In this document: one piece after another, positions 6,121 to 20,916 of the stretch
Position numbering within the stretch: position 1 is the stretch's first letter
Layout of the letters: the number at the start of each line of letters is the position of its first letter
Assembly: GCF_055900595.2 (NCBI RefSeq)
Contig: NZ_CM148325.1
Length of the DNA: 64,000 nt
Strand: one strand, 5' to 3'
Program-made: the position numbers and the translations under genes
The notes under the pieces: generated by a model
The model's input: the letters and a program-made list of their open reading frames with translations, nothing else
Database searches by the model: none
What the model was told of the DNA's origin: nothing

Positions 6121-6813
6121 ATGAAAAAGATTAATGCAATAATTTTATTATCTTCTCTGACCTCTGCCTCGGTATTTGCTGGCGCATACGTCGAAAACAG
6201 GGAGGCATATAATCTCGCCTCCGATCAGGGCGAGGTTATGCTACGTGTGGGTTATAACTTCGATATGGGCGCGGGTATCATGTTAACCAATACCTACAAC
6301 TTTCAGCGCGAAGATGAACTAAAACATGGATATAACGAAATTGAAGGCTGGTATCCGTTATTTAAACCAACCGATAAATTAACCATCCAGCCCGGTGGAT
6401 TAATTAATGATAAGAGCGCCGGTTCCGGTGGTGCAGTATATCTGGACGTCAACTATAAATTTGTACCATGGTTTAATCTGACAGTGCGAAATCGCTATAA
6501 CCATAATAACTACAGTTCAACAGATTTGAACGGGGAGCTGGATAATAATGACACCTATGAAATTGGTACCTACTGGAATTTCAAAATCACCGATAAATTC
6601 TCCTATACATTTGAGCCACATTATTTTATACGCGTAAATGACTTTAATAGCAGCAATGGAAAAGATCATCATTGGGAAATCACTAATACCTTCCGTTACC
6701 GTATTAATGAACACTGGCTGCCTTATTTCGAATTACGCTGGTTAGACCGCAACGTCGAGCCGTATCACCGCGAGCAAAACCAGATTCGTATCGGAACGAA
6801 GTATTTCTTCTGA
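6121..6813 (+). CDS. ompL: Outer membrane porin L
   Basis: 230-aa ORF with N-terminal signal peptide (MKKINAIILLSSLTSASVFA) and C-terminal aromatic residue typical of beta-barrel proteins. Confidence 0.85.
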   Translation: MKKINAIILLSSLTSASVFAGAYVENREAYNLASDQGEVMLRVGYNFDMGAGIMLTNTYNFQREDELKHGYNEIEGWYPLFKPTDKLTIQPGGLINDKSAGSGGAVYLDVNYKFVPWFNLTVRNRYNHNNYSSTDLNGELDNNDTYEIGTYWNFKITDKFSYTFEPHYFIRVNDFNSSNGKDHHWEITNTFRYRINEHWLPYFELRWLDRNVEPYHREQNQIRIGTKYFF

Positions 6814-7025
6814 TGTGAAAATGTAAAAAGTCGCTGATATGGACTGCCCCCCATAAAGTTGGACAGTTCAGGTTAAGCGGCTTTTTACACAGATATTCAC
6901 AATATAAATAACTCCCCATAATTATATAACCACGTTGATTATAAAATATTCCTCGTCCTCTCTATCAAAGTCATTGACTACCAGGTAAGATCTTTTCCAC
7001 CGCAACACTCACAAGGAATGAGAAA

Positions 7026-7874
7026 ATGGAAAAGAAATTTTTTATGGATTGGGATAATGAAATCCCGCAAGAAGAGTTTATTAACAATATTTTAGCCGAT
7101 GAAGACCTGCCTAAAATCCGCTCTCTGATTATTGGTCGTTGGGGGGAGTGCTGGGATGAGGAAAGTTGCCAACCAATAATCGACATGTTTGTTGAACATG
7201 CCGAACGCTTTGCTCATCTCGAATCCCTATTTATCGGCGATATGGAAAGCGAAGAGTGTGAAATTTCGTGGATAAAACAAGGGGATTATTCTCGTCTGTA
7301 TGCTGCGCTGCCGAACCTCAAAAAGCTGACAATTAAAGGTACTCAGGGCCTGGAACTGGGAGAAATCGCCCATGACAAACTGGAGCATCTGGAAATTATC
7401 TCTGGCGGTACGCCGTGTGACGTGTTCGCCTCATTGCAAAATGCCCAACTGCCTGCGTTAAAAACACTTATCGTTTATATTGGCGTTGAGAATTATGGTT
7501 TTGATGCATCGCTGGATATCGTAATGAAGCTGGCGTCGAAATCCCTCTTCCCGAGCCTGACGCATCTTGGCCTGGTGAACAGCGAAGAGCAAAACGAAAT
7601 CGTCCGCCGCGTGCTGGAAAGCGACATTCTGCCGCAACTGGAAGTGCTGGCACTCTCCTGCGGTACGCTTACCGACGAAGGTGCAGAGCATCTTCTCAAA
7701 CATGCCGATCGCCTTAGCCATCTGAAACTGCTGGATTTGTACCATCATTACCTGACAGAAGAGATGCAGAAAAAACTGCAAAAAACACTGACATGTACTC
7801 TCGAATTATCAGAAGCGCTAACGCCTGAAGTCTATGATGACGAAATTTATATGCATGCGATGTATACCGAATAA
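7026..7874 (+). CDS. Leucine-rich-repeat-like acidic cytoplasmic protein (I recall the family being labelled STM4015-like)
   Basis: 282-aa ORF with no signal peptide; repeated L-P-x-L-K-x-L / L-x-x-L-x-L segments (LPNLKKLTIKG, LEHLEIISGG, LPALKTLIVYIG, FPSLTHLGLVNS, LPQLEVLALSCG, LSHLKLLDL); AAGGA 8 nt upstream of ATG. Confidence 0.7.
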   Translation: MEKKFFMDWDNEIPQEEFINNILADEDLPKIRSLIIGRWGECWDEESCQPIIDMFVEHAERFAHLESLFIGDMESEECEISWIKQGDYSRLYAALPNLKKLTIKGTQGLELGEIAHDKLEHLEIISGGTPCDVFASLQNAQLPALKTLIVYIGVENYGFDASLDIVMKLASKSLFPSLTHLGLVNSEEQNEIVRRVLESDILPQLEVLALSCGTLTDEGAEHLLKHADRLSHLKLLDLYHHYLTEEMQKKLQKTLTCTLELSEALTPEVYDDEIYMHAMYTE

Positions 7875-7934
7875 ATGACATTTATTGGGAGAGAGTCATC
7901 TCTCCCATTATTTATCACAGAAAAGGAATTCTTC

Positions 7935-8921
7935 GTGATTACGCTAATTGGTCATCCTGAAAGCAAACGCACATTTTATTTTTGCCAGGCAGCGTCACGC
8001 TTACAGGAACATATCAACGTAGTGAGCTATGATCAAGCACTTACCCTGCTCTTAAATAAAGGCATGGTAAAAATCGATCCCCCCTTACATCAGGAAACAG
8101 ATATTCGCTTAATTAATACGGTTAGCCAAAACTATATTACTTTTTTACAAAAAATGGCTACCAGAAGGGAGATCCGTTTTATTAACTCACCAGAAGGTAT
8201 TATTCATCTTCTGGATAAACGCCACTGTAAGCAACGATTAGTCGAACACGCGATCCCGACACCGCCAATATTAGCGGATGATATCCGTAGCTACGATCAA
8301 CTGATCGCCTGTATGCGCAGCGAAAAGGTTTATCGCGTGTTTATTAAGCCGAATTTCGGATCAGGGGCCGCCGGGGTGCTGGCTTTGAGTCTACATCCCG
8401 GCGATAACCGTCAGGTGCTTTATTGCGCCATCCAGGTTGCAGGTGACAGGCTGGTGAACAGTAAACATATTATCCGCTATGAAAACAGCGGTGATATTAC
8501 GTTGATTGTGAATGCTATTTTACAACAAGACAATATTATCGAACGCTGGCTGGCAAAAGCCAGAGTGGGCAATAAAAGCTACGATTTACGCATCGTGTAC
8601 GTTAATGGTGAAATCGTCTGGCGGGTTGTCAGAACATCATCACAGCCGATCACCAATTTACATTTACAAAATGAAGCTATCCGTTTTGCCGATCTTAATT
8701 TACCCGTAGAAAAAGTAGCTGAAATTGATACGCTTTGTCTCAACGCCATGACCCTCTATCCGGACGTACACATTGCCGGGCTTGACGTATTACTCACGCA
8801 AAATTTAACACCCTATATTATCGAAATTAACGGCCAGGGCGATCTTATTTATCAGGACACCTGCGAAAAAAACAAAATTTATCAACGCCAGATTCAGGTA
8901 ATGAGAGAACATCATGTATAA
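7935..8921 (+). CDS. ATP-grasp-like protein (I recall the family being labelled STM4014-like)
   Basis: ORF 7875-8921; start placed at in-frame GTG 7935 because AAGGA lies 7 nt upstream, but the ATG at 7875 immediately after the preceding stop is an alternative. The ATP-grasp assignment is by resemblance only. Confidence 0.55.
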   Translation: MITLIGHPESKRTFYFCQAASRLQEHINVVSYDQALTLLLNKGMVKIDPPLHQETDIRLINTVSQNYITFLQKMATRREIRFINSPEGIIHLLDKRHCKQRLVEHAIPTPPILADDIRSYDQLIACMRSEKVYRVFIKPNFGSGAAGVLALSLHPGDNRQVLYCAIQVAGDRLVNSKHIIRYENSGDITLIVNAILQQDNIIERWLAKARVGNKSYDLRIVYVNGEIVWRVVRTSSQPITNLHLQNEAIRFADLNLPVEKVAEIDTLCLNAMTLYPDVHIAGLDVLLTQNLTPYIIEINGQGDLIYQDTCEKNKIYQRQIQVMREHHV

Positions 8922-9786
8922 CGTAACAGACGAAGTACCGGAAAATACCCGCACGGCAATCCATTCCTGCGATGGCGAAATCAATCTGAATGATTTAATT
9001 GCCAGGGAAGCCAATATCCTGTTTGTGGTGCTTGATTCCCTGCGTTTTGATATTGCGTTTCAGGAACAAGAGGCGGGAAATACACCAAATATTAACCGCT
9101 ATGGTCGCTGGATAAAGTGTGAAGCCGCTGGCAATTTTACCTGGCCTTCGCATCATTCGATGTTCTCTGGTTTTATGCCTAAGCCGCTGGAAGCTGCACC
9201 TGGTCATTCAATGCTCTTTTTCCCGAAAGATATTGGTTTAGGTCGTTTAGGGCCAAAAAATGCGTTCGCGTTCAGCGAAGAGACGTGGATTAAAGGGCTG
9301 GAAAACAAAGGTTACCGCACTATCTGCGTGGGTGGCGTCTCCTTTTTTAATAACCGCTCAGGGATGGGAAAAGTGTTCCCGGCGATGTTTAAAGAGAGTT
9401 ACTGGTATCCTAATTTCTCCTGCACGGTGAAAGAGAGCATGGATAATCAGCTCACCTTAATTAACAAAAAGGTGAACGCTGAACAGCCGCTGATGATGTA
9501 TATCAATATCGACACCATTCATTATCCGAATCATTTTTATATTGAAAATGCCAAACCTGGCGATACGGTAGAAACTCACGCCGCTGCCCTGCATTATATT
9601 GATGCCAGAATCGAAAAACTTTTCGATATCTTTCGGCAAACCGGGCGGGAGACGTTAGTTATTCTCTGTTCCGATCATGGCACCTGCTACGGGGAAGACG
9701 GTAAATATTTCCACAGTTTTAACCATCCGATTGTGAATACCGTACCCTATTTTCACTTTGTGTTAGACGGCAAAGACCATGAATAA
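8914..9786 (+). CDS. Alkaline-phosphatase-superfamily metallo-hydrolase (phosphodiesterase/phosphomutase/sulfatase-like core)
   Basis: 290-aa ORF with N-terminal FVVLDSLRFD motif typical of AlkP-core metal-binding enzymes; start overlaps the upstream stop by 8 nt. Confidence 0.7.
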   Translation: MYNVTDEVPENTRTAIHSCDGEINLNDLIAREANILFVVLDSLRFDIAFQEQEAGNTPNINRYGRWIKCEAAGNFTWPSHHSMFSGFMPKPLEAAPGHSMLFFPKDIGLGRLGPKNAFAFSEETWIKGLENKGYRTICVGGVSFFNNRSGMGKVFPAMFKESYWYPNFSCTVKESMDNQLTLINKKVNAEQPLMMYINIDTIHYPNHFYIENAKPGDTVETHAAALHYIDARIEKLFDIFRQTGRETLVILCSDHGTCYGEDGKYFHSFNHPIVNTVPYFHFVLDGKDHE

Positions 9787-11017
9787 TGAATCGATTTATC
9801 AGCAATATATGTACAGTTACCCGCATAAGACCGCTTATCGGGAATTAAACAATATTGCTTTTGCGGATGTGAAATCGCGTATTTACGAGCATAAAACACA
9901 TCTCTATATTCATATGCCTTTTTGCCAGAGCCGCTGCGGGTTTTGTAATCTCTTTACCTGCACGGGGGCAGACAATGCCTTTATCGACAACTACATAGAA
10001 GCAATTATTATCCAGGCCCGGCAAATGCAACTTGCGCCTGTAGACTGGGCCAGTTTTACCATTGGCGGCGGTACGCCACTACTGCTTAATACCGGGCAAC
10101 TGTCACGGTTGTTTCGCGGGGTGTTTGACGAATTACAGGTCGATGCGCAGATTTTTAAGGCAATTGAAACATCGCCTTCCGATACCACCGCCGAAAAGGT
10201 CGCGTTATTGCGCCAGCTTGCGGTAAACCGCGTCAGTATTGGCATTCAGAGTTTTAACGATCTGGAACTTGCCACATTACACCGCCGCCATAGTGCGGAA
10301 AATGCCCATCGGGCGCTGGAGCTACTGCGCAGGGGTAATTTCCCGATAATCAATATTGATATTATTTACGGTATTCCTGGTCAAACAGCCGCAAGTTTAA
10401 TGGCGTCGCTTAATCAAGCATTAGATTATCAGCCTGACGAACTGTTTCTGTACCCGCTATATAACATGCCGCGTCAGCCGGATATGTATAGCCTCTATAT
10501 TGAAGCCCGCGATCGCTTATTGCATGAAGGTTATACGCAAACGTCAATGCGCCGTTTTGTGCGGGTGAATAATGATTCGGCGGCTGAAAGTTGTGGCTTT
10601 GAAAATTCGCTGGCGCTTGGCGCGGGCGGGCGCAGTTATCTTGGCAATTTACATTACTGCACGCCGTGGTCGCAAAACCAGCCCGCATCGCGGCAAATTG
10701 TCACGGATTTTATCGCCCGGCCAGATAAGACCCAGATTCACCACGGCTATGTACTTTCACAAGCAGAAATGAAGCGGCGTTTTATTATCAAGAATCTCTT
10801 TTTCTATAAGGGGCTTTCGTTACGGGATTATCAGCACCAGTTCTTCTCTGAGGTATTAAGCGATTTTCCCCTGCTGGGCGATTTCATCAAACAAGATTAC
10901 TGCCACCAGCAGGATAATCGTATTCTGCTCACCGCGCAGGGTTTAGCGCTTTCGGACCAGCTTGGCCCGCTGTTTATCTCCCCGGAAGTTCGCAGGCTGG
11001 AGACGCATAAACGATGA
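9779..11017 (+). CDS. HemN/HemW-like radical SAM protein
   Basis: 412-aa ORF with YIHMPFCQSRCGFC (C49-x3-C53-x2-C56) radical SAM motif in HemN-like context; start overlaps the upstream stop. Confidence 0.8.
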   Translation: MNNESIYQQYMYSYPHKTAYRELNNIAFADVKSRIYEHKTHLYIHMPFCQSRCGFCNLFTCTGADNAFIDNYIEAIIIQARQMQLAPVDWASFTIGGGTPLLLNTGQLSRLFRGVFDELQVDAQIFKAIETSPSDTTAEKVALLRQLAVNRVSIGIQSFNDLELATLHRRHSAENAHRALELLRRGNFPIINIDIIYGIPGQTAASLMASLNQALDYQPDELFLYPLYNMPRQPDMYSLYIEARDRLLHEGYTQTSMRRFVRVNNDSAAESCGFENSLALGAGGRSYLGNLHYCTPWSQNQPASRQIVTDFIARPDKTQIHHGYVLSQAEMKRRFIIKNLFFYKGLSLRDYQHQFFSEVLSDFPLLGDFIKQDYCHQQDNRILLTAQGLALSDQLGPLFISPEVRRLETHKR

Positions 11018-11871
11018 CGCTCAAGCAGATCCAGACGCTGATTTATCGCGGCGAGATAAAGTCGTGTAATTATCGCTGTGGTTATTGCCCTTTTCATAAA
11101 CAAGACCGCAATGATAAACAGCAGGATGAAGTGGCATTATGGCGCATGGTTGAACATTTACCGGCGCAGGGTTCACCATTAAATGTATTTATTACGCCCT
11201 ACGGCGAAGCATTGCGTTATCGTTATTATATGGCGGCGATGGCGGAAATCAGCCGCTATTCCCATGTGCAGGCGGTGGGTATTCAGACCAACGCCTCTTT
11301 TAATTTATCCACCTTAGTCGCGACTTTTCAGCACTCTCAGGGCGATTTAGCAAAGCTGCGGCTGTGGTGTTCGTTTCATCCTTCCCAGGCAAGTAAAGAA
11401 GTTTTCCTTAAACAGTTACTGGCAATTAAGGACACGGGGATTACCTGTTCTGTGGGGGCCGTCGCCAGCGTAGCCGACTATGACGAATTACAGTGGTTAC
11501 GCGCGCATCTTCCTCCCGATATCTATTTCTGGCTAAACGCCAATGAGCGCGATAAAAGGCCCACCAGCGACGAAAGAAATAGCCAGTTTCAGTTGCTGGA
11601 CCCGCTTTATTATCTGGAAACCAGCCTCTGGCCTGCCAATGTCGAGTTTTGTCTGGGCGGCAAAAAGAGCGTGTTTATGAATGCTGATGGCGATCTCTTC
11701 GCCTGTAATATCAGCAAAATTAAGATTGGCAATTTATATCAACAGCAACTTTCATCTCCGTCTTGTATGTCCAGGCACTGTCACTGTTATCTGGCTTATC
11801 ACCTGCGTGAGGATATTCCGGCCCTCTCACAATTTGATGCTGAACGCTGCTTTCGGATCTTCTCGTTATGA
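11014..11871 (+). CDS. Small radical SAM protein with C-terminal Cys/His cluster
   Basis: 285-aa ORF; CNYRCGYC (C18-x3-C22-x2-C25) near N-terminus; C231, C251, C256, C258 near C-terminus; ATGA overlap with upstream stop. Confidence 0.75.
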   Translation: MTLKQIQTLIYRGEIKSCNYRCGYCPFHKQDRNDKQQDEVALWRMVEHLPAQGSPLNVFITPYGEALRYRYYMAAMAEISRYSHVQAVGIQTNASFNLSTLVATFQHSQGDLAKLRLWCSFHPSQASKEVFLKQLLAIKDTGITCSVGAVASVADYDELQWLRAHLPPDIYFWLNANERDKRPTSDERNSQFQLLDPLYYLETSLWPANVEFCLGGKKSVFMNADGDLFACNISKIKIGNLYQQQLSSPSCMSRHCHCYLAYHLREDIPALSQFDAERCFRIFSL

Positions 11872-12563
11872 TCTGGCGGTTAATCGCGCTCGATTTAGAC
11901 GGCACATTGCTGAACAGCAAGAAGATGATTTCCCCTGCGTCTGTTTCGGCACTGCAAAGCGCACAACAGGCAGGTGTGAAAATTATCCTCGCCACCGGAC
12001 GTTCGCACAGCGAAGCCCTGCCTTATTACCAACAATTGCAGTTAACCGAGCCGATGATTTGCTGTAACGGCAGCTATCTTTATCATCCGCGCCAGCGGCA
12101 AATATTGCGTCCGCTGGCGCTTGATATCCACAAGGTGGAAAGGCTACGACTCTGGTTTTCACAACAAATATTGCAGCCAAATATTTATACGTACGATGAT
12201 TTTGTTTTGCAGATTAGCCTGATACACCGCAAGGCTTCGTTATTGCGCCAGACAGAGGAATTTGCCCGACAAGAATTATCGCTGGCCTGTAGCTGGTCCT
12301 GGCATCATCAACTGGATATTACACAGGTGGGGTGTGAGAAAGGCAAAAGTCTGGCCTGGTATGCCCGACAGCAAAATATCGTGCTGGATGAAATCATCGC
12401 CTTTGGCGATAACGATAATGATGCGGGGATGCTGCGGATGGTAGGCAAAGGGATTGCGATGGGCAATGGCAGTTCGCTGGCAAAAGTCAGTGCTGACCGC
12501 GTTATTGGTCACAACAACACAGATGCTATTGCGGATTTTCTTGATGCGCAGGGTTTCAGATGA
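11868..12563 (+). CDS. HAD-superfamily Cof-type phosphatase
   Basis: 231-aa ORF with N-terminal ALDLDGTLL motif (HAD motif I) and GDNDND near the C-terminus; ATGA overlap with upstream stop. Confidence 0.8.
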   Translation: MIWRLIALDLDGTLLNSKKMISPASVSALQSAQQAGVKIILATGRSHSEALPYYQQLQLTEPMICCNGSYLYHPRQRQILRPLALDIHKVERLRLWFSQQILQPNIYTYDDFVLQISLIHRKASLLRQTEEFARQELSLACSWSWHHQLDITQVGCEKGKSLAWYARQQNIVLDEIIAFGDNDNDAGMLRMVGKGIAMGNGSSLAKVSADRVIGHNNTDAIADFLDAQGFR

Positions 12564-12564
12564 C

Positions 12565-12600
12565 GCCTGATGCGATGCTGACGCATCTTATCAGGCCTAC
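12565..12600. repeat. REP (repetitive extragenic palindromic) element
   Basis: gcctgatgcgatgctgacgcatcttatcaggcctac, the typical enterobacterial REP palindrome. Confidence 0.75.
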
Positions 12601-12604
12601 AAAA

Positions 12605-12637
12605 GCAAAAAACCTGCCATCGCTGGCAGGTTTTTTA
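12605..12637. terminator. Bidirectional rho-independent terminator (typA and the upstream operon)
   Basis: A-tract, cctgccatcgctggcagg hairpin, then TTTTTT, between convergent genes. Confidence 0.8.
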
Positions 12638-12653
12638 TGACTAAAAAACGAAA

Positions 12654-14477
12654 TTAATCGTCTTTCGGTGCGCGGTTGGCGCGACGACGATCGTTTTCCG
12701 TCAGGTGACGTTTACGAATACGGATAGAGGTCGGAGTCACTTCTACCAGTTCGTCATCATCGATGAACTCCAGCGCTTGTTCCAGCGTCATGCGGATAGG
12801 CGGAACCAGAACAACGGCTTCGTCAGTACCGGAAGCACGCATGTTGGTCAGTTTCTTACCGGTCAGACAGTTTACAGTCAGGTCGTTAGAACGGCTGTGA
12901 ATACCGATAATCTGACCTTCGTAAACTTCTGCACCGTGACCGAGGAACAGCTTACCGCGATCCTGCAGACCGAACAGCGCGAACGCGACCGCTTTACCCT
13001 GACCGTTAGAGATCAGTACGCCGTTCTGACGCTGACCCACTTCACCCGGACGCACGTCGTCGTAGTGGCTGAAGGTGGAGTACAACAGACCCGTACCAGA
13101 GGTCATGGTCATGAACTCAGAACGGAAGCCAATCAGACCACGGCTTGGGATCACGTAGTCGAGACGTACGCGGCCTTTACCGTCTGGATTCATGTTTTTC
13201 AGGTCGCCTTTACGTTCGCCCAGCGCCTGCATCACAGAACCCTGATGCTGTTCTTCAACGTCCAGCGTCACGTTTTCATACGGCTCTTGTTTACGACCGT
13301 CGATTTCACGGAAGATAACTTTCGGACGGGATACCGCCAGTTCGAAACCTTCACGACGCATGTTTTCGATCAGAACAGACAGGTGCAGTTCGCCACGACC
13401 AGAAACGCGGAACGCATCGGCGTCTTCAGTTTCTTCTACGCGCAGCGCAACGTTGTGTACCAGTTCTTTGTTCAGACGATCCAGAATCTGACGAGACGTT
13501 ACGAACTTACCTTCTTTACCGCAGAACGGCGAGGTGTTAACGCAGAAGAACATAGAAACGGTCGGCTCATCAACGGAGAGTGCCGGCAGCGCTTCAACGT
13601 TTTGCGTGTCGCAAACGGTGTCAGAAATGTTCAGTTCGCCCAGGCCCGTGATCGCCACGATATCGCCAGCTTCCGCCAGATCGGTTTCGATACGTTCCAG
13701 ACCGAGGTGGCCCAGCACTTTACCGACTTTCGCGTTGCGGGTTTTGCCTTCGCTATCGATGATAGTAACTTGCTGGTTCGGCTTCACTTTACCGCGCTTG
13801 ATGCGGCCAATGCCGATAACGCCAACATAGCTGTTGTAATCGAGCTGAGAAATCTGCATCTGGAACGGACCGTCAAGGTCAACGTCCGGCGCAGGAACGT
13901 GGTCAACAATTGCCTGATACAGCGGGGTCATGTCTTCCGCCATATCTTCGTGGTCCAGACCGGCGATACCGTTCAGCGCAGAAGCGTAAACGATCGGGAA
14001 GTCCAGCTGCTCGTCGGTCGCGTCGAGGTTAACGAACAGGTCGAATACCTGATCCACAACCCAGTCAGGACGCGCGCCAGGGCGGTCAACTTTGTTGATA
14101 ACAACAATTGGCTTCAGGCCGTAAGCAAACGCTTTTTTGGTTACGAAGCGCGTTTGCGGCATCGGGCCGTCAAATGCGTCAACCACCAGCAGCACTGAGT
14201 CTACCATGGACATTACACGTTCAACTTCACCACCGAAGTCGGCGTGCCCCGGGGTATCAACGATGTTGATACGGTAATCATTCCATTTGATAGCGGTGTT
14301 TTTCGCGAGGATGGTAATCCCACGCTCTTTCTCCAAATCGTTGGAGTCCATCACGCGCTCTTGGGTTTCGGCACGAGAGTCGAACGTACCGGATTGTTGG
14401 AGCAGCTTGTCTACCAGGGTGGTTTTACCATGGTCTACGTGCGCGATGATGGCGATATTACGCAATTTTTCGATCAC
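12654..14477 (-). CDS. typA: Ribosome-associated translational GTPase BipA/TypA
   Basis: 607-aa ORF with G-domain motifs ([18 protein letters not shown]). Confidence 0.95.
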
Positions 14478-19354: not shown

Positions 19355-20728
19355 TTAAATCACCCGTGAGAACTGCTGCATCCGCGCTTTCTGGCGCAGA
19401 TAGGTATCAAAGCACATGCAAATGTTGCGGATCAGCAGGCGACCTTTCGCCGTTACCTGAATCCCCTTCTCATCCACATCCACCAGCCCATCTTTTGCTA
19501 ACGGGGCGAGCAGCTTGAGATCTTCTGCAAAGTAGTCAGCGAAGAGCAAATCCCACTGTTGCTCAATAGGGGCGTAATCCAGACGGAAGTTGCAGATGAG
19601 CGACTTAATCACATCGCGGCGAATACAGTCATCACGCGTTAGCGCAATACCACGCCACAGCGCATTGCCTTGTTCATCCACTTGCTGATAGTACTGCTTC
19701 AACTCTTTCTGGTTCTGCGCGTAGCAGTCGCCAATCATGCTGATGGCGGAAACGCCCATCCCCAGCAGATCGGTATCGCCCTGAGTGGTGTAGCCCTGGA
19801 AGTTACGATGCAGCACGCCTTCACGCTGGGCCACCGCCAGCTCGTCATCCGGACGGGCAAAGTGATCCATACCGATAAACTGATAGCCCGATTGTGTCAG
19901 GAAGGCGATGGTTTCCTGCAGGATATCGAGTTTTTGCTGCGGACTCGGCAGGTCAGCATCTTTGATTTTACGCTGAGCAGCAAAAATGGTCGGCAAATGC
20001 GCGTAGTTAAAGACACTCAGGCGATCGGGGTTAAGTTCCGCCACGCGTTTCAGGGTAAAGGCGAAACTCTCCGGCGTTTGTTTCGGCAGGCCGTAAATCA
20101 GGTCGATGTTGGTGGAGGTAAAGCCAATCTCACGCGCATGGTTAAGCAGTGCAAAGATGAACTCTTCATCCTGCTCGCGGTTAACCAGACGTTGCACTTC
20201 TTTGTTGAAGTCCTGCACGCCCATGCTCAGGCGATTAAAGCCTTCGGCGCGTAAATGATCGAGTACATCCAGTTCGATTTCCCGCGGATCGACTTCGATC
20301 GAGATCTCCGCATCGGCATTGAACTGGAAGTTTTCGCGCAGCAGCTTCATCAGACGGCTGATTTGCGCTTTATTCAGATACGTCGGCGTTCCTCCGCCCC
20401 AGTGCAATTGGCTGACGTGACGCCCGGCGAACAGCGGTGCACGATGGACGATTTCTTGCTCCAGCGCGTCCAGATACTGATCGGCCTTGTGCTGCTGGCG
20501 AGTAACAATCTTATTGCAACCGCAGAAGTAACAAAGCTTATGGCAGAACGGGATATGTACGTAGAGAGATAATGGACGCTCAGGATAGCGCGCCACGGCT
20601 TGTAAAAACGCCTGTTCGCCGAAGTCTTCTGAAAACTCCAGCGCGGTTGGGTACGAGGTGTATCGTGGCCCGGAATAGTTATATTTCTGGATCAGGGCCA
20701 GATCCCAGTCGATTTGCTGTACAGACAT
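19355..20728 (-). CDS. hemN: Oxygen-independent coproporphyrinogen III oxidase (radical SAM)
   Basis: 457 aa from MSVQQIDW; YVHIPFCHKLCYFCGC radical SAM motif including the fourth Cys. Confidence 0.95.
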   Translation of the reverse strand: MSVQQIDWDLALIQKYNYSGPRYTSYPTALEFSEDFGEQAFLQAVARYPERPLSLYVHIPFCHKLCYFCGCNKIVTRQQHKADQYLDALEQEIVHRAPLFAGRHVSQLHWGGGTPTYLNKAQISRLMKLLRENFQFNADAEISIEVDPREIELDVLDHLRAEGFNRLSMGVQDFNKEVQRLVNREQDEEFIFALLNHAREIGFTSTNIDLIYGLPKQTPESFAFTLKRVAELNPDRLSVFNYAHLPTIFAAQRKIKDADLPSPQQKLDILQETIAFLTQSGYQFIGMDHFARPDDELAVAQREGVLHRNFQGYTTQGDTDLLGMGVSAISMIGDCYAQNQKELKQYYQQVDEQGNALWRGIALTRDDCIRRDVIKSLICNFRLDYAPIEQQWDLLFADYFAEDLKLLAPLAKDGLVDVDEKGIQVTAKGRLLIRNICMCFDTYLRQKARMQQFSRVI

Positions 20729-20916
20729 GCTCACTCCTTCCGATGGCGTCTCTGGCGGCTACGGCGTACCGGCGGATGCCCGTTTCGGGTCATCAACCGG
20801 TTGCGCAGCCACTTTTGTCGCCGCGACAACCGCTGTAGTTTAACGAATAACCACACCAGATAACATATAACCGGAAGGGTTATCAGCAGAACGGGAAGGC
20901 CCACGGCGGCAATCCG

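Follow-up and report, generated by a model that had tools for sequence, protein, structure and literature searches.

What is the function of six adjacent genes that fill the interval between ompL and typA (positions 7026–12563) in a 64,000-nucleotide stretch of contig NZ_CM148325.1, assembly GCF_055900595.2, hereafter called the window? The genes, g1 to g6, are all transcribed in one direction and encode a leucine-rich repeat (LRR)-like protein (L), an ATP-grasp ligase (G), an enzyme of the alkaline phosphatase superfamily (S), a HemN-like radical S-adenosylmethionine (SAM) enzyme (N), a small radical SAM enzyme (R), and a haloacid dehalogenase (HAD) phosphatase, respectively. We found that five of them form a conserved unit, which may act on the C-terminal tail of L.

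A preliminary description of the window, made by reading the sequence, had listed these six same-strand genes and their families, had pointed to STM4011–STM4015-like names in Salmonella annotations, and had offered no experimentally assigned function. Our analysis agrees on each of these points. The open reading frames (ORFs) were recovered at exactly the same coordinates (Table 1; the ORF of g2 in its longest form spans 7875–8921), each of the six proteins scores above the cutoff of its NCBIfam model, five of them in the STM4011–STM4015 families, and PGAP gives the same six genes these names in Escherichia coli genomes. In the searchable full-text literature we found no published function for the STM4011–STM4015 families, only incidental table entries for STM4013 and STM4015. 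Hence the existence of the families is already known, as hypothetical equivalogs, by name only and without function, substrate, or mechanism. In Salmonella LT2, an antisense sigma-54 holoenzyme site seen by chromatin immunoprecipitation on microarrays, with a predicted binding sequence, lies inside STM4013 (PMC3844500).

Conservation of the gene cassette

A scan based on R, with one representative genome per species, yielded at least 516 genomic places confirmed by tblastn, and distant STM4011 homologs in metagenomes were 26–48% identical. To describe the linkage, 86 loci were fetched with flanks of up to 10 kb on each side and searched with iterated hidden Markov models of the six proteins; a near-identical E. 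coli locus (L001) and a duplicate (L003) were set aside, leaving 84 loci to be counted. L, G, S, N, and R are found together in 72 of these 84 loci, nearly always in the order L-G-S-N-R, and many of the remaining 12 loci are truncated contigs or lie close to a contig end. The hosts are Lachnospiraceae and other Clostridia, Bacteroides, Phocaeicola, Treponema, Planctomycetes, Saprospiraceae, Duganella, and Superficieibacter, and so the range at the phylum level covers Firmicutes, Bacteroidota, Spirochaetes, Planctomycetes, and Proteobacteria. The same five families in the same order across phyla mean that the linkage is far beyond chance.

The preliminary description had treated all six genes as one set. 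Linkage in other genomes holds for five of them, and the conserved unit is L-G-S-N-R, while the HAD follows a different pattern. R carries a C-terminally fused HAD-IIB domain in 50 of the 86 loci (∼58%), yielding proteins of ∼490 aa with the domains PF04055 and PF08282; a separate HAD gene occurs in enterobacterial loci only, and in ∼34 of the 86 loci (∼40%) the fetched flanks, of at most 10 kb per side, showed no HAD. The HAD belongs to the cassette system.

All-against-all clustering of ∼1,900 flanking ORFs revealed no further conserved neighbor, that is, no shared protease, transporter, or regulator; the clusters comprised generic families only (histidine kinases, MATE transporters, AraC regulators). 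In six loci that have R and lack L and G (L019, L021, L024, L033, L075, and L080), the neighbors are unrelated housekeeping genes. The Salmonella cassette protein belongs to a cluster of 2,701 members.

Two loci have unusual surroundings. In L004 (1–4826), a cassette variant lies directly downstream of large proteins with bpX0, bpX1, and bpX3 domains and next to recombinase, integrase, and transposase genes; these neighbors place it on or near a mobile or conflict island. On the JGI contig of P0152, which has three WGR-LRR paralogs, a small gene and a gene for a PemK-family toxin (9798–10417), probably a toxin–antitoxin pair, are located between G and S.

The LRR protein and its glutamate-ending tail

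A homolog of g1 with a solved structure is an uncharacterized Bacteroides fragilis protein (PDB 2ra8, E=1.6e-71). The C-terminal parts of L proteins share a common layout: after an acidic linker (D.SE..E.DEYDGE) come an aromatic residue at −7, at −5, or at both and the motif [AP]M[LIY]TE with the stop codon, this motif being replaced by V[SG]E-stop in Planctomycetes, Proteobacteria, and Saprospiraceae. In the window, g1 ends in HAMYTE, with E282 as the terminal residue. This glutamate is invariant both in the alignment of 25 L sequences (the E282 column) and in all 72 cassette loci.

To survey the tails without the bias of loci found through R, an L profile was run against 1.84 billion representative proteins, which yielded 1,365 clusters (50% identity) at E≤1e-30. 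Among the representatives of the best 150 of these clusters, 146 have Glu as the last residue. Of the other four, three are giant generic LRR proteins of eukaryotic size, and one is a sequence stopping two residues short. Preceding the Glu is a small residue (S, G, T, or A), which in 48 of the 146 is Gly or Ala, and the tails of the 25 aligned sequences contain no conserved Lys. That the last residue and the position of the stop remain fixed at 30–50% overall identity indicates selection on a free C-terminal Glu. The L family as a whole is acidic, with the median isoelectric point (pI) of 4.3 and a tail net charge of about −7, and G and R are the most basic members of the cassette.

Several L genes may share one set of enzymes. 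Three tandem paralogs were found in L094 (tails RYVAIGE, RYVAVGE, and RYMAVWE), three tandem WGR-L genes accompany one G-S-N-R set on a JGI contig, and L017 and L083 have two L genes each. Loci seeded from divergent L proteins again hold G-S-N-R, and all L paralogs in them are tailed. Several L genes with one enzyme set is the usual arrangement of substrate or precursor genes. An N-terminal WGR domain was found in 14 of 37 extended L homologs, and TPR, KOW, or DUF1508 domains in others; by these architectures, the LRR domain with its tail is a constant C-terminal module on variable N-termini.

These properties bear on the classical layout of ribosomally made, post-translationally modified peptides (RiPPs), against which the preliminary description had argued from the lack of a short precursor gene. 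Indeed, there is no small precursor ORF upstream of g1: the only ORF of at least 20 aa on the + strand (7018–7095) is out of frame and overlaps g1. The argument is weakened, however, because g1 itself looks like a precursor or carrier in its Glu tail, its constant adjacency to G, and its tandem copies in some loci.

The LRR module was also seen at the C-termini of two giant orphan proteins, in L093 (8001–10370, 789 aa) and L095 (5130–8120, 996 aa), with no cassette within 8 kb; they adjoin AAA_21/RloB pairs and SMI1_KNR4 immunity-like genes. As for orphan tails, that of P0088 is kept (YWYPMLTE) and that of P0138 is degenerate (...GQREIE).

The ATP-grasp ligase and its association with L

G has an invariant ATP-grasp catalytic set, comprised of K95, K138, a GSxAxG loop, E203, and the Mg ligands D284, E297, and N299. 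Profile searches yielded weak matches to LysX, RimK, cyanophycin synthetase, and biotin carboxylase. Its confident AlphaFold model is matched best in Foldseek by ArgX-LysW (3vpb, 3e-14), LysX/ArgX-LysW (5k2m), and RimK-RpsF (5zk6), with Ddl, DcsG, and PsnB next; the sequence profiles indicate this clade as well. LysX/ArgX and RimK ligate their substrates onto the C-terminal Glu of a protein. The likeness of g2 to LysX/ArgX, as seen in the predicted model, is structural only.

L and G are adjacent in 72 of the 72 complete loci, where neither occurs without the other, and the pair stays together even when moved or inverted relative to S-N-R (L006, L037, L069, L074, and L083). Moreover, the class of the tail perfectly tracks the class of the G active-site loop: TE goes with GQGD in 66 loci, and SE or GE with AFGD in six.

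A separate observation concerns three Lachnospiraceae loci (L036, L045, and L054), in which the ATP-grasp ORF is 420–450 aa long and matches the family profile in separate stretches; this split indicates an insertion of ∼80–100 residues that other members do not have.

The phosphoesterases and the radical SAM enzymes

The invariant residues of S are D41, T76, H80, N198, H203, D254, H255, H267, and H271. T76 aligns with the formylglycine Cys of sulfatases, and the motif around this nucleophile is T-x-P/A-S/A-H, as opposed to C/S-x-P-x-R in formylglycine sulfatases. The protein has ∼270 aa, lacks the sulfatase C-terminal subdomain, and its C-terminal motif matches EptA, MCR, and NPP. The marks of alkaline-phosphatase-superfamily enzymes with a Thr nucleophile (the metal-ligand Asp, the Thr, and DH(G)) are all present in S. 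By these residues S is identified as a Thr-nucleophile enzyme of phosphoryl transfer, predicted to resemble LtaS, EptA, or NPP, and not as a sulfatase.

In N, the motifs CX3CX2C and GGGTP are invariant. The score against the hemN model TIGR00538 is 124 bits at a cutoff of 325, and the motif CQSRCGFCNL lacks the fourth Cys of HemN. A bona fide hemN (19355–20734, − strand; 804.6 bits with TIGR00538) is present in the window ∼7 kb from g4, to which it is 25% identical. The identification of g4 as HemN was therefore rejected, given the score below the cutoff, the missing Cys, and the true hemN elsewhere; with the latter so near, the old labels of coproporphyrinogen oxidase on g4-type genes are misannotations.

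R starts directly with the radical SAM motif. CNYxCxYCPF is invariant, and C213, C231, C251, C256, and C258 are conserved. The Pfam SPASM match is partial and weak (E=0.004), four to five C-terminal Cys are conserved as candidate ligands of an auxiliary Fe-S cluster, and the C-terminus resembles SkfB and BtrN. The AlphaFold model (pLDDT, the predicted local distance difference test score, ∼95) is equidistant, at TM scores of 0.43–0.5, from viperin-like enzymes, SkfB, MoaA, BtrN, anaerobic sulfatase-maturating enzymes (anSME), and EpeE.

The g6 product scores under the cutoff of the pyridoxal phosphatase model and aligns to this model in two stretches; hence its cap domain is shortened.

A possible pathway on the tail of L

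The preliminary description had inferred a multistep pathway for either a phosphorylated small molecule or a protein-bound residue, and the data favor the protein-bound option. We suggest, at somewhat less than even confidence and on comparative evidence, that the cassette is a self-contained, protein-templated pathway of modification or biosynthesis acting on the tail of L. That L would be the carrier or precursor follows from the invariant Glu tail, the adjacency of G, the structural likeness of G to LysX/ArgX/RimK, and the tandem L paralogs; we infer the tail as the substrate, the carboxylate used, the order of the steps, and the chemistry. The pathway is also favored by the acidity of L beside the basic G and R, by the hairpin after the L stop, and by a cassette that has no protease, transporter, or regulator conserved with it.

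In such a pathway, g1 would be a non-enzymatic acidic LRR carrier or precursor presenting, after a flexible acidic linker, a conserved tail with a free Glu at its end. The g2 ligase would activate a carboxylate of this Glu as an acyl-phosphate and ligate an amine, either an amino acid or an amino-bearing phosphorylated metabolite. The HemN-like g4, probably with two SAM bound, and the twitch/SPASM-like g5 would remodel the tethered group or the adjacent aromatic and Met residues of the tail, and g3, of the LtaS/EptA/NPP type, together with g6 would act on a phosphoester of the building block or of an intermediate, by transfer or by removal. What is formed could be either a new modification that remains at the C-terminus of the LRR protein or a released small molecule or cofactor. 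It is possible, if doubtful, that STM4015 LRR proteins constitute a new class of full-size carriers or precursors, with the tail ligated by a dedicated ATP-grasp enzyme and rebuilt by two radical SAM enzymes and a phosphotransferase into a novel C-terminal modification or a tail-derived cofactor.

Several observations weigh against a pathway on the tail. The advantage of LysX and RimK over Ddl, DcsG, and PsnB in the structural search is only about two orders of magnitude in E-value, and g2 falls far below the cutoffs of both the LysX equivalog model TIGR02144 (31 bits, cutoff 276) and the RimK model TIGR00768 (37.6 bits, cutoff 143.4). The co-variation of the tail with the G loop could have a simple cause in cassette-wide shared phylogeny. 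We modeled chimeras with AlphaFold2, in which G was joined through a 24-residue glycine-serine linker to the cognate 20-residue L tail, using a locus-paired alignment of 23 sequences; the ATP-grasp domain was predicted at pLDDT ∼92 and the tail at ∼33, that is, no docking was predicted. The R-tail chimera speaks for the pathway, with the tail at pLDDT 57–63 in two short strands and the linker at 37, but the signal is weak and only suggestive. The structural neighbors of R include nucleotide-acting enzymes (viperin, MoaA) along with peptide-acting ones. The fusion of R with the HAD argues for at least one phosphorylated small molecule among the substrates or building blocks; it fits equally well tethering of a metabolite as on LysW and L serving as a scaffold, and it suggests a small substrate rather than a peptide. 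Finally, some L-domain proteins exist far from any cassette, and, as LRR domains usually bind proteins, the role of L could be that of a scaffold or sensor, with the tail as its docking motif.

Other explanations

Some of these points would be accounted for if the cassette made a small molecule or cofactor without the L tail as a substrate: a phosphorylated metabolite, such as a sugar phosphate or nucleotide, would be converted by R, N, S, and the HAD, G would join two small molecules, and L would be a scaffold, regulator, or sensor with a docking or autoinhibitory tail. Cof-type HADs typically act on small phosphorylated metabolites, which suits the HAD-IIB fused to R in ∼58% of loci; the nearest folds of R include enzymes acting on nucleotides or sugars (viperin-like, MoaA, BtrN, and AbmM), the tail was not docked by G in the AlphaFold model, and a few loci have S, N, and R but neither L nor G. 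We consider this explanation unlikely, though to be taken seriously: it leaves unexplained the last residue and stop position of L fixed across phyla, the inseparability of L and G, and the multiplication of L with a single enzyme set, and loci with R alone show no alternative conserved partners. A graspetide-like RiPP, in which the ATP-grasp enzyme would close macrocycles within the tail of L through ester or amide bonds of side chains and further cross-links would come from the radical SAM enzymes, seems improbable. The graspetide ligase PsnB is among the structural matches of G, Asp and Glu abound in the tails, Thr occupies −1 in most cassette loci, and SPASM-type radical SAM enzymes often accompany graspetide ATP-grasps (PMC8939145). 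On the other hand, with Gly or Ala at −1 in 48 of 146 representatives there is no conserved hydroxyl, the tails contain no conserved Lys, and a leader peptide, conserved protease, or exporter is lacking; the text of the graspetide survey does not mention LRR, sulfatase, or HemN (PMC8939145).

Quite improbable, in our estimate, is an anti-phage or conflict system, with the LRR protein (with or without WGR) sensing an invader and the radical SAM enzymes and phosphoesterases making a toxic or signaling nucleotide. The stable chromosomal position in enterobacteria and the 2,701-member cluster fit vertical inheritance, most genomes have ordinary housekeeping neighbors, and a search with the PADLOC-DB 2.0 defense models left five of the six proteins without a match and gave one marginal hit for g4 (PDC-M51A, E=9e-6). 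Such a system would nonetheless agree with the variable presence (157 of 5,426 E. coli genomes), the polymorphic site, the GC content below that of the flanks, WGR domains in 14 of 37 extended L homologs, viperin-like folds of R, and the AAA_21/RloB, SMI1_KNR4, and bpX proteins, recombinases, and PemK toxin beside some L homologs or cassettes. A role in heme or tetrapyrrole metabolism, in which g4 would be a coproporphyrinogen oxidase, heme chaperone, or heme-degrading enzyme and the other genes accessory, is very improbable. Although g4 aligns with HemN over the full length including HemN_C and has sub-threshold matches to HemW, HemN, ChuW, and HemZ, all heme-family scores are far under the curated cutoffs, the fourth Cys is absent, the genuine hemN lies 7 kb away, and no other heme gene is linked in any locus examined. 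The last alternative is a sulfatase with its maturating enzyme, R oxidizing Cys or Ser of S to formylglycine. S does match Pfam Sulfatase and solved sulfatases, anSME is among the structural neighbors of R, and the cassette adjoins the sulfoquinovose cluster. However, the invariant Thr at the formylglycine position removes this explanation of both S and R, and the score of R against the anSME model TIGR03942 is 15 bits at a cutoff of 349; we regard it as effectively refuted.

The ompL–typA site in E. coli and relatives

In the window, which is E. coli DNA, ompL (6121–6813, + strand) precedes the operon, convergent typA (12654–14477, − strand) follows it, and glnA lies beyond. The GC content of the cassette, 38–50%, is lower than that of typA and glnA (52–55%). 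The preliminary description had placed yihL-yihM-yihN at this position in K-12, and MG1655 does have bipA(typA)-yihL-yihM-yihN-ompL there. The full cassette is present in 157 of 5,426 complete E. coli genomes, always as a single chromosomal copy, matches to yihLMN in 4,423 of the 5,426, and neither insert in ∼850. In the genomes examined, the cassette and yihLMN are mutually exclusive occupants of one site, yet the two do not just alternate, and the site is not a two-state switch. Beside the order ompL, cassette, typA of the window and the order ompL, yihNML, typA of K-12, there is an empty state in strain Q5 (L092), with ompL ∼100 bp from typA. Furthermore, B2 strains lack the region from ompL through yihS, a part of the sulfoquinovose cluster, and yihW directly flanks the insert, which is the cassette in LF82 (L089: yihW, cassette, typA) and yihNML in Nissle 1917 (L091: yihW, yihNML, typA).

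Cassette alleles within E. coli are up to 6% divergent, a Salmonella-like contig carries the cassette at the same ompL–typA position, and in Superficieibacter it lies beside typA. The allelic divergence and the position shared with the Salmonella-like contig point to a polymorphism that is old and was passed on vertically. E. coli Z0117EC0005, the complete genome nearest to the window at 99.9% identity, has its STM4015 gene (L001, 6227–7074) annotated as a frameshifted pseudogene; intact copies occur in the window, LF82, and strains of the ST648 type.

Operon structure and expression signals

The positions of the genes and of the other elements are listed in Table 1. Adjacent genes overlap by 8 nt at g2/g3 and g3/g4 and by 4 nt at g4/g5 and g5/g6, for which a single, translationally coupled operon is the natural reading.

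Table 1. Genes and other elements of the ompL–typA interval in the window.
Feature	Position	Strand	Evidence or remark
Intergenic leader ompL–g1	6814..7025	+	presumed promoter location
g1 (L), STM4015-family LRR-like protein, 282 aa, pI 4.6	7026..7874	+	NF038076, 323 bits (curated cutoff 275)
g1 C-terminal tail EVYDDEIYMHAMYTE	7827..7871	+	terminal Glu codon GAA 7869-7871, then stop TAA
GC-rich hairpin and T-rich tract, directly 3' of g1 stop	7886..7907	+	terminator scan
g2 (G), STM4014-family ATP-grasp ligase	7935..8921 (alternative in-frame ATG 7875)	+	NF038074, 337 bits (curated cutoff 175)
g3 (S), STM4013/SEN3800-family alkaline-phosphatase-superfamily enzyme, Thr nucleophile	8914..9786	+	NF038075, 351 bits (curated cutoff 250)
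g4 (N), STM4012-family HemN-like radical SAM enzyme	9779..11017	+	NF006067, 492 bits (curated cutoff 380)
g5 (R), STM4011-family small radical SAM enzyme, C-terminal Cys-rich region	11014..11871	+	NF038073, 300 bits (curated cutoff 200)
g6, Cof-type HAD-IIB phosphatase, shortened cap domain	11868..12563	+	TIGR00099, 179 bits (cutoff 137)
Symmetric bidirectional intrinsic terminator, convergent g6/typA gap	12606..12637	.	14-bp stem between A and T runs

The leader upstream of g1 had no riboswitch or other RNA family match in an Rfam search at E≤1, and a promoter scan of it returned weak sigma-70-like matches only, as frequent as by chance. The hairpin after the g1 stop has a folding z-score of −3.2 to −3.3. 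In E. coli, the Salmonella-like contig, and Superficieibacter it sits in a non-coding gap of 50–60 nt between the L stop and the G start, and the equivalent hairpins of the latter two have a different stem sequence. It is a candidate partial terminator or mRNA-stabilizing element, and its location after the L stop in the enterobacterial versions fits expression of L in excess over the enzymes.

The g2 start is probably the GTG at 7935 and not the ATG at 7875, which directly follows the g1 stop. PGAP uses this GTG, Superficieibacter has an ATG in the same alignment column, and a Shine-Dalgarno-like AAGGA precedes the conserved GTG/ATG. The stretch 7875–7934 contains the hairpin and non-triplet indels between genera.

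The terminator between g6 and typA is the end of the operon. At the typA 3' end, a match to the enterobacterial small RNA family STnc370 (12601–12669, − strand) reaches 53.2 bits at a gathering score of 54; this near-threshold match overlaps the terminator. Within the 3' end of g6, there is a weak match resembling naRNA4/REP (12530–12597, + strand; E=0.024).

Significance and comparison with known systems

Among radical SAM clusters without a known function, this cassette ranks as one of the more widespread. Its hosts number hundreds of gut and environmental bacteria, including Salmonella, the Crohn's-associated E. coli LF82, and the dominant Bacteroides and Lachnospiraceae of the human gut. 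Its analysis corrects two propagated misannotations, that of g4 as coproporphyrinogen oxidase and that of g3 as sulfatase. If STM4015 proteins were a new class of carriers, the modification would be common to proteins with differing N-terminal domains (WGR, TPR, and others) and widespread in gut bacteria.

The closest parallel is the LysW/amino-group carrier protein (AmCP) system, in which, as proposed for the cassette, an acidic carrier with a free C-terminal Glu is encoded next to a RimK-family ATP-grasp enzyme and downstream enzymes act on the tethered group; the charge pattern of the cassette, with L acidic and G and R the most basic members, is also that of LysW systems. However, LysW is a zinc ribbon of 54 aa ending in EDWGE, whereas the cassette carrier would be an LRR protein of ∼280 aa, sometimes with an N-terminal WGR domain, ending in ...[AP]M[LI]TE or ...V[SG]E. 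Furthermore, LysZ, LysY, LysJ, and LysK are found neither among g1–g6 nor among conserved neighbors, and two radical SAM enzymes and two phosphoesterases are present instead. Similar to what we propose for G, RimK is an ATP-grasp enzyme whose target is the C-terminal Glu of a folded, acidic-tailed protein, ribosomal protein S6; the substrate of the cassette ligase would not be S6, and unlike this ligase, which is locked to four or five other enzymes, RimK works by itself.

The radical SAM enzymes suggest a parallel with pyrroloquinoline quinone (PQQ; PqqA/PqqE), mycofactocin (MftA/MftC), and the pearlins, the latter built on a carrier peptide, where an enzyme of the SPASM/twitch type remodels C-terminal residues of a ribosomal product, as might happen in the cassette. 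Like PqqA, the tail of L has a conserved Glu and aromatic residues, and several precursor-like genes occur per enzyme set. By contrast, the putative precursor of the cassette is a full-size folded protein, and no RiPP recognition element (RRE) or PqqD-like chaperone, peptidase, or exporter is linked to it. In addition, the cassette has a HemN-like enzyme, an AlkP-fold enzyme, and a HAD, none of which is found in these pathways. The short leader-core precursor, RRE maturase, and protease or exporter of classical RiPPs are lacking as well, while the multiple copies of L are RiPP-like. In sum, by its logic the cassette would most resemble LysW/AmCP or RimK–S6 joined to radical SAM tail chemistry as in PQQ or mycofactocin, yet by the features compared it falls outside the LysW/AmCP, RimK–S6, classical RiPP, and graspetide systems. 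If L does present its tail as a carrier, the templated chemistry of the LysW, RimK, PQQ, and mycofactocin type would extend to a folded LRR scaffold, and new radical SAM and ATP-grasp reactions would be indicated.

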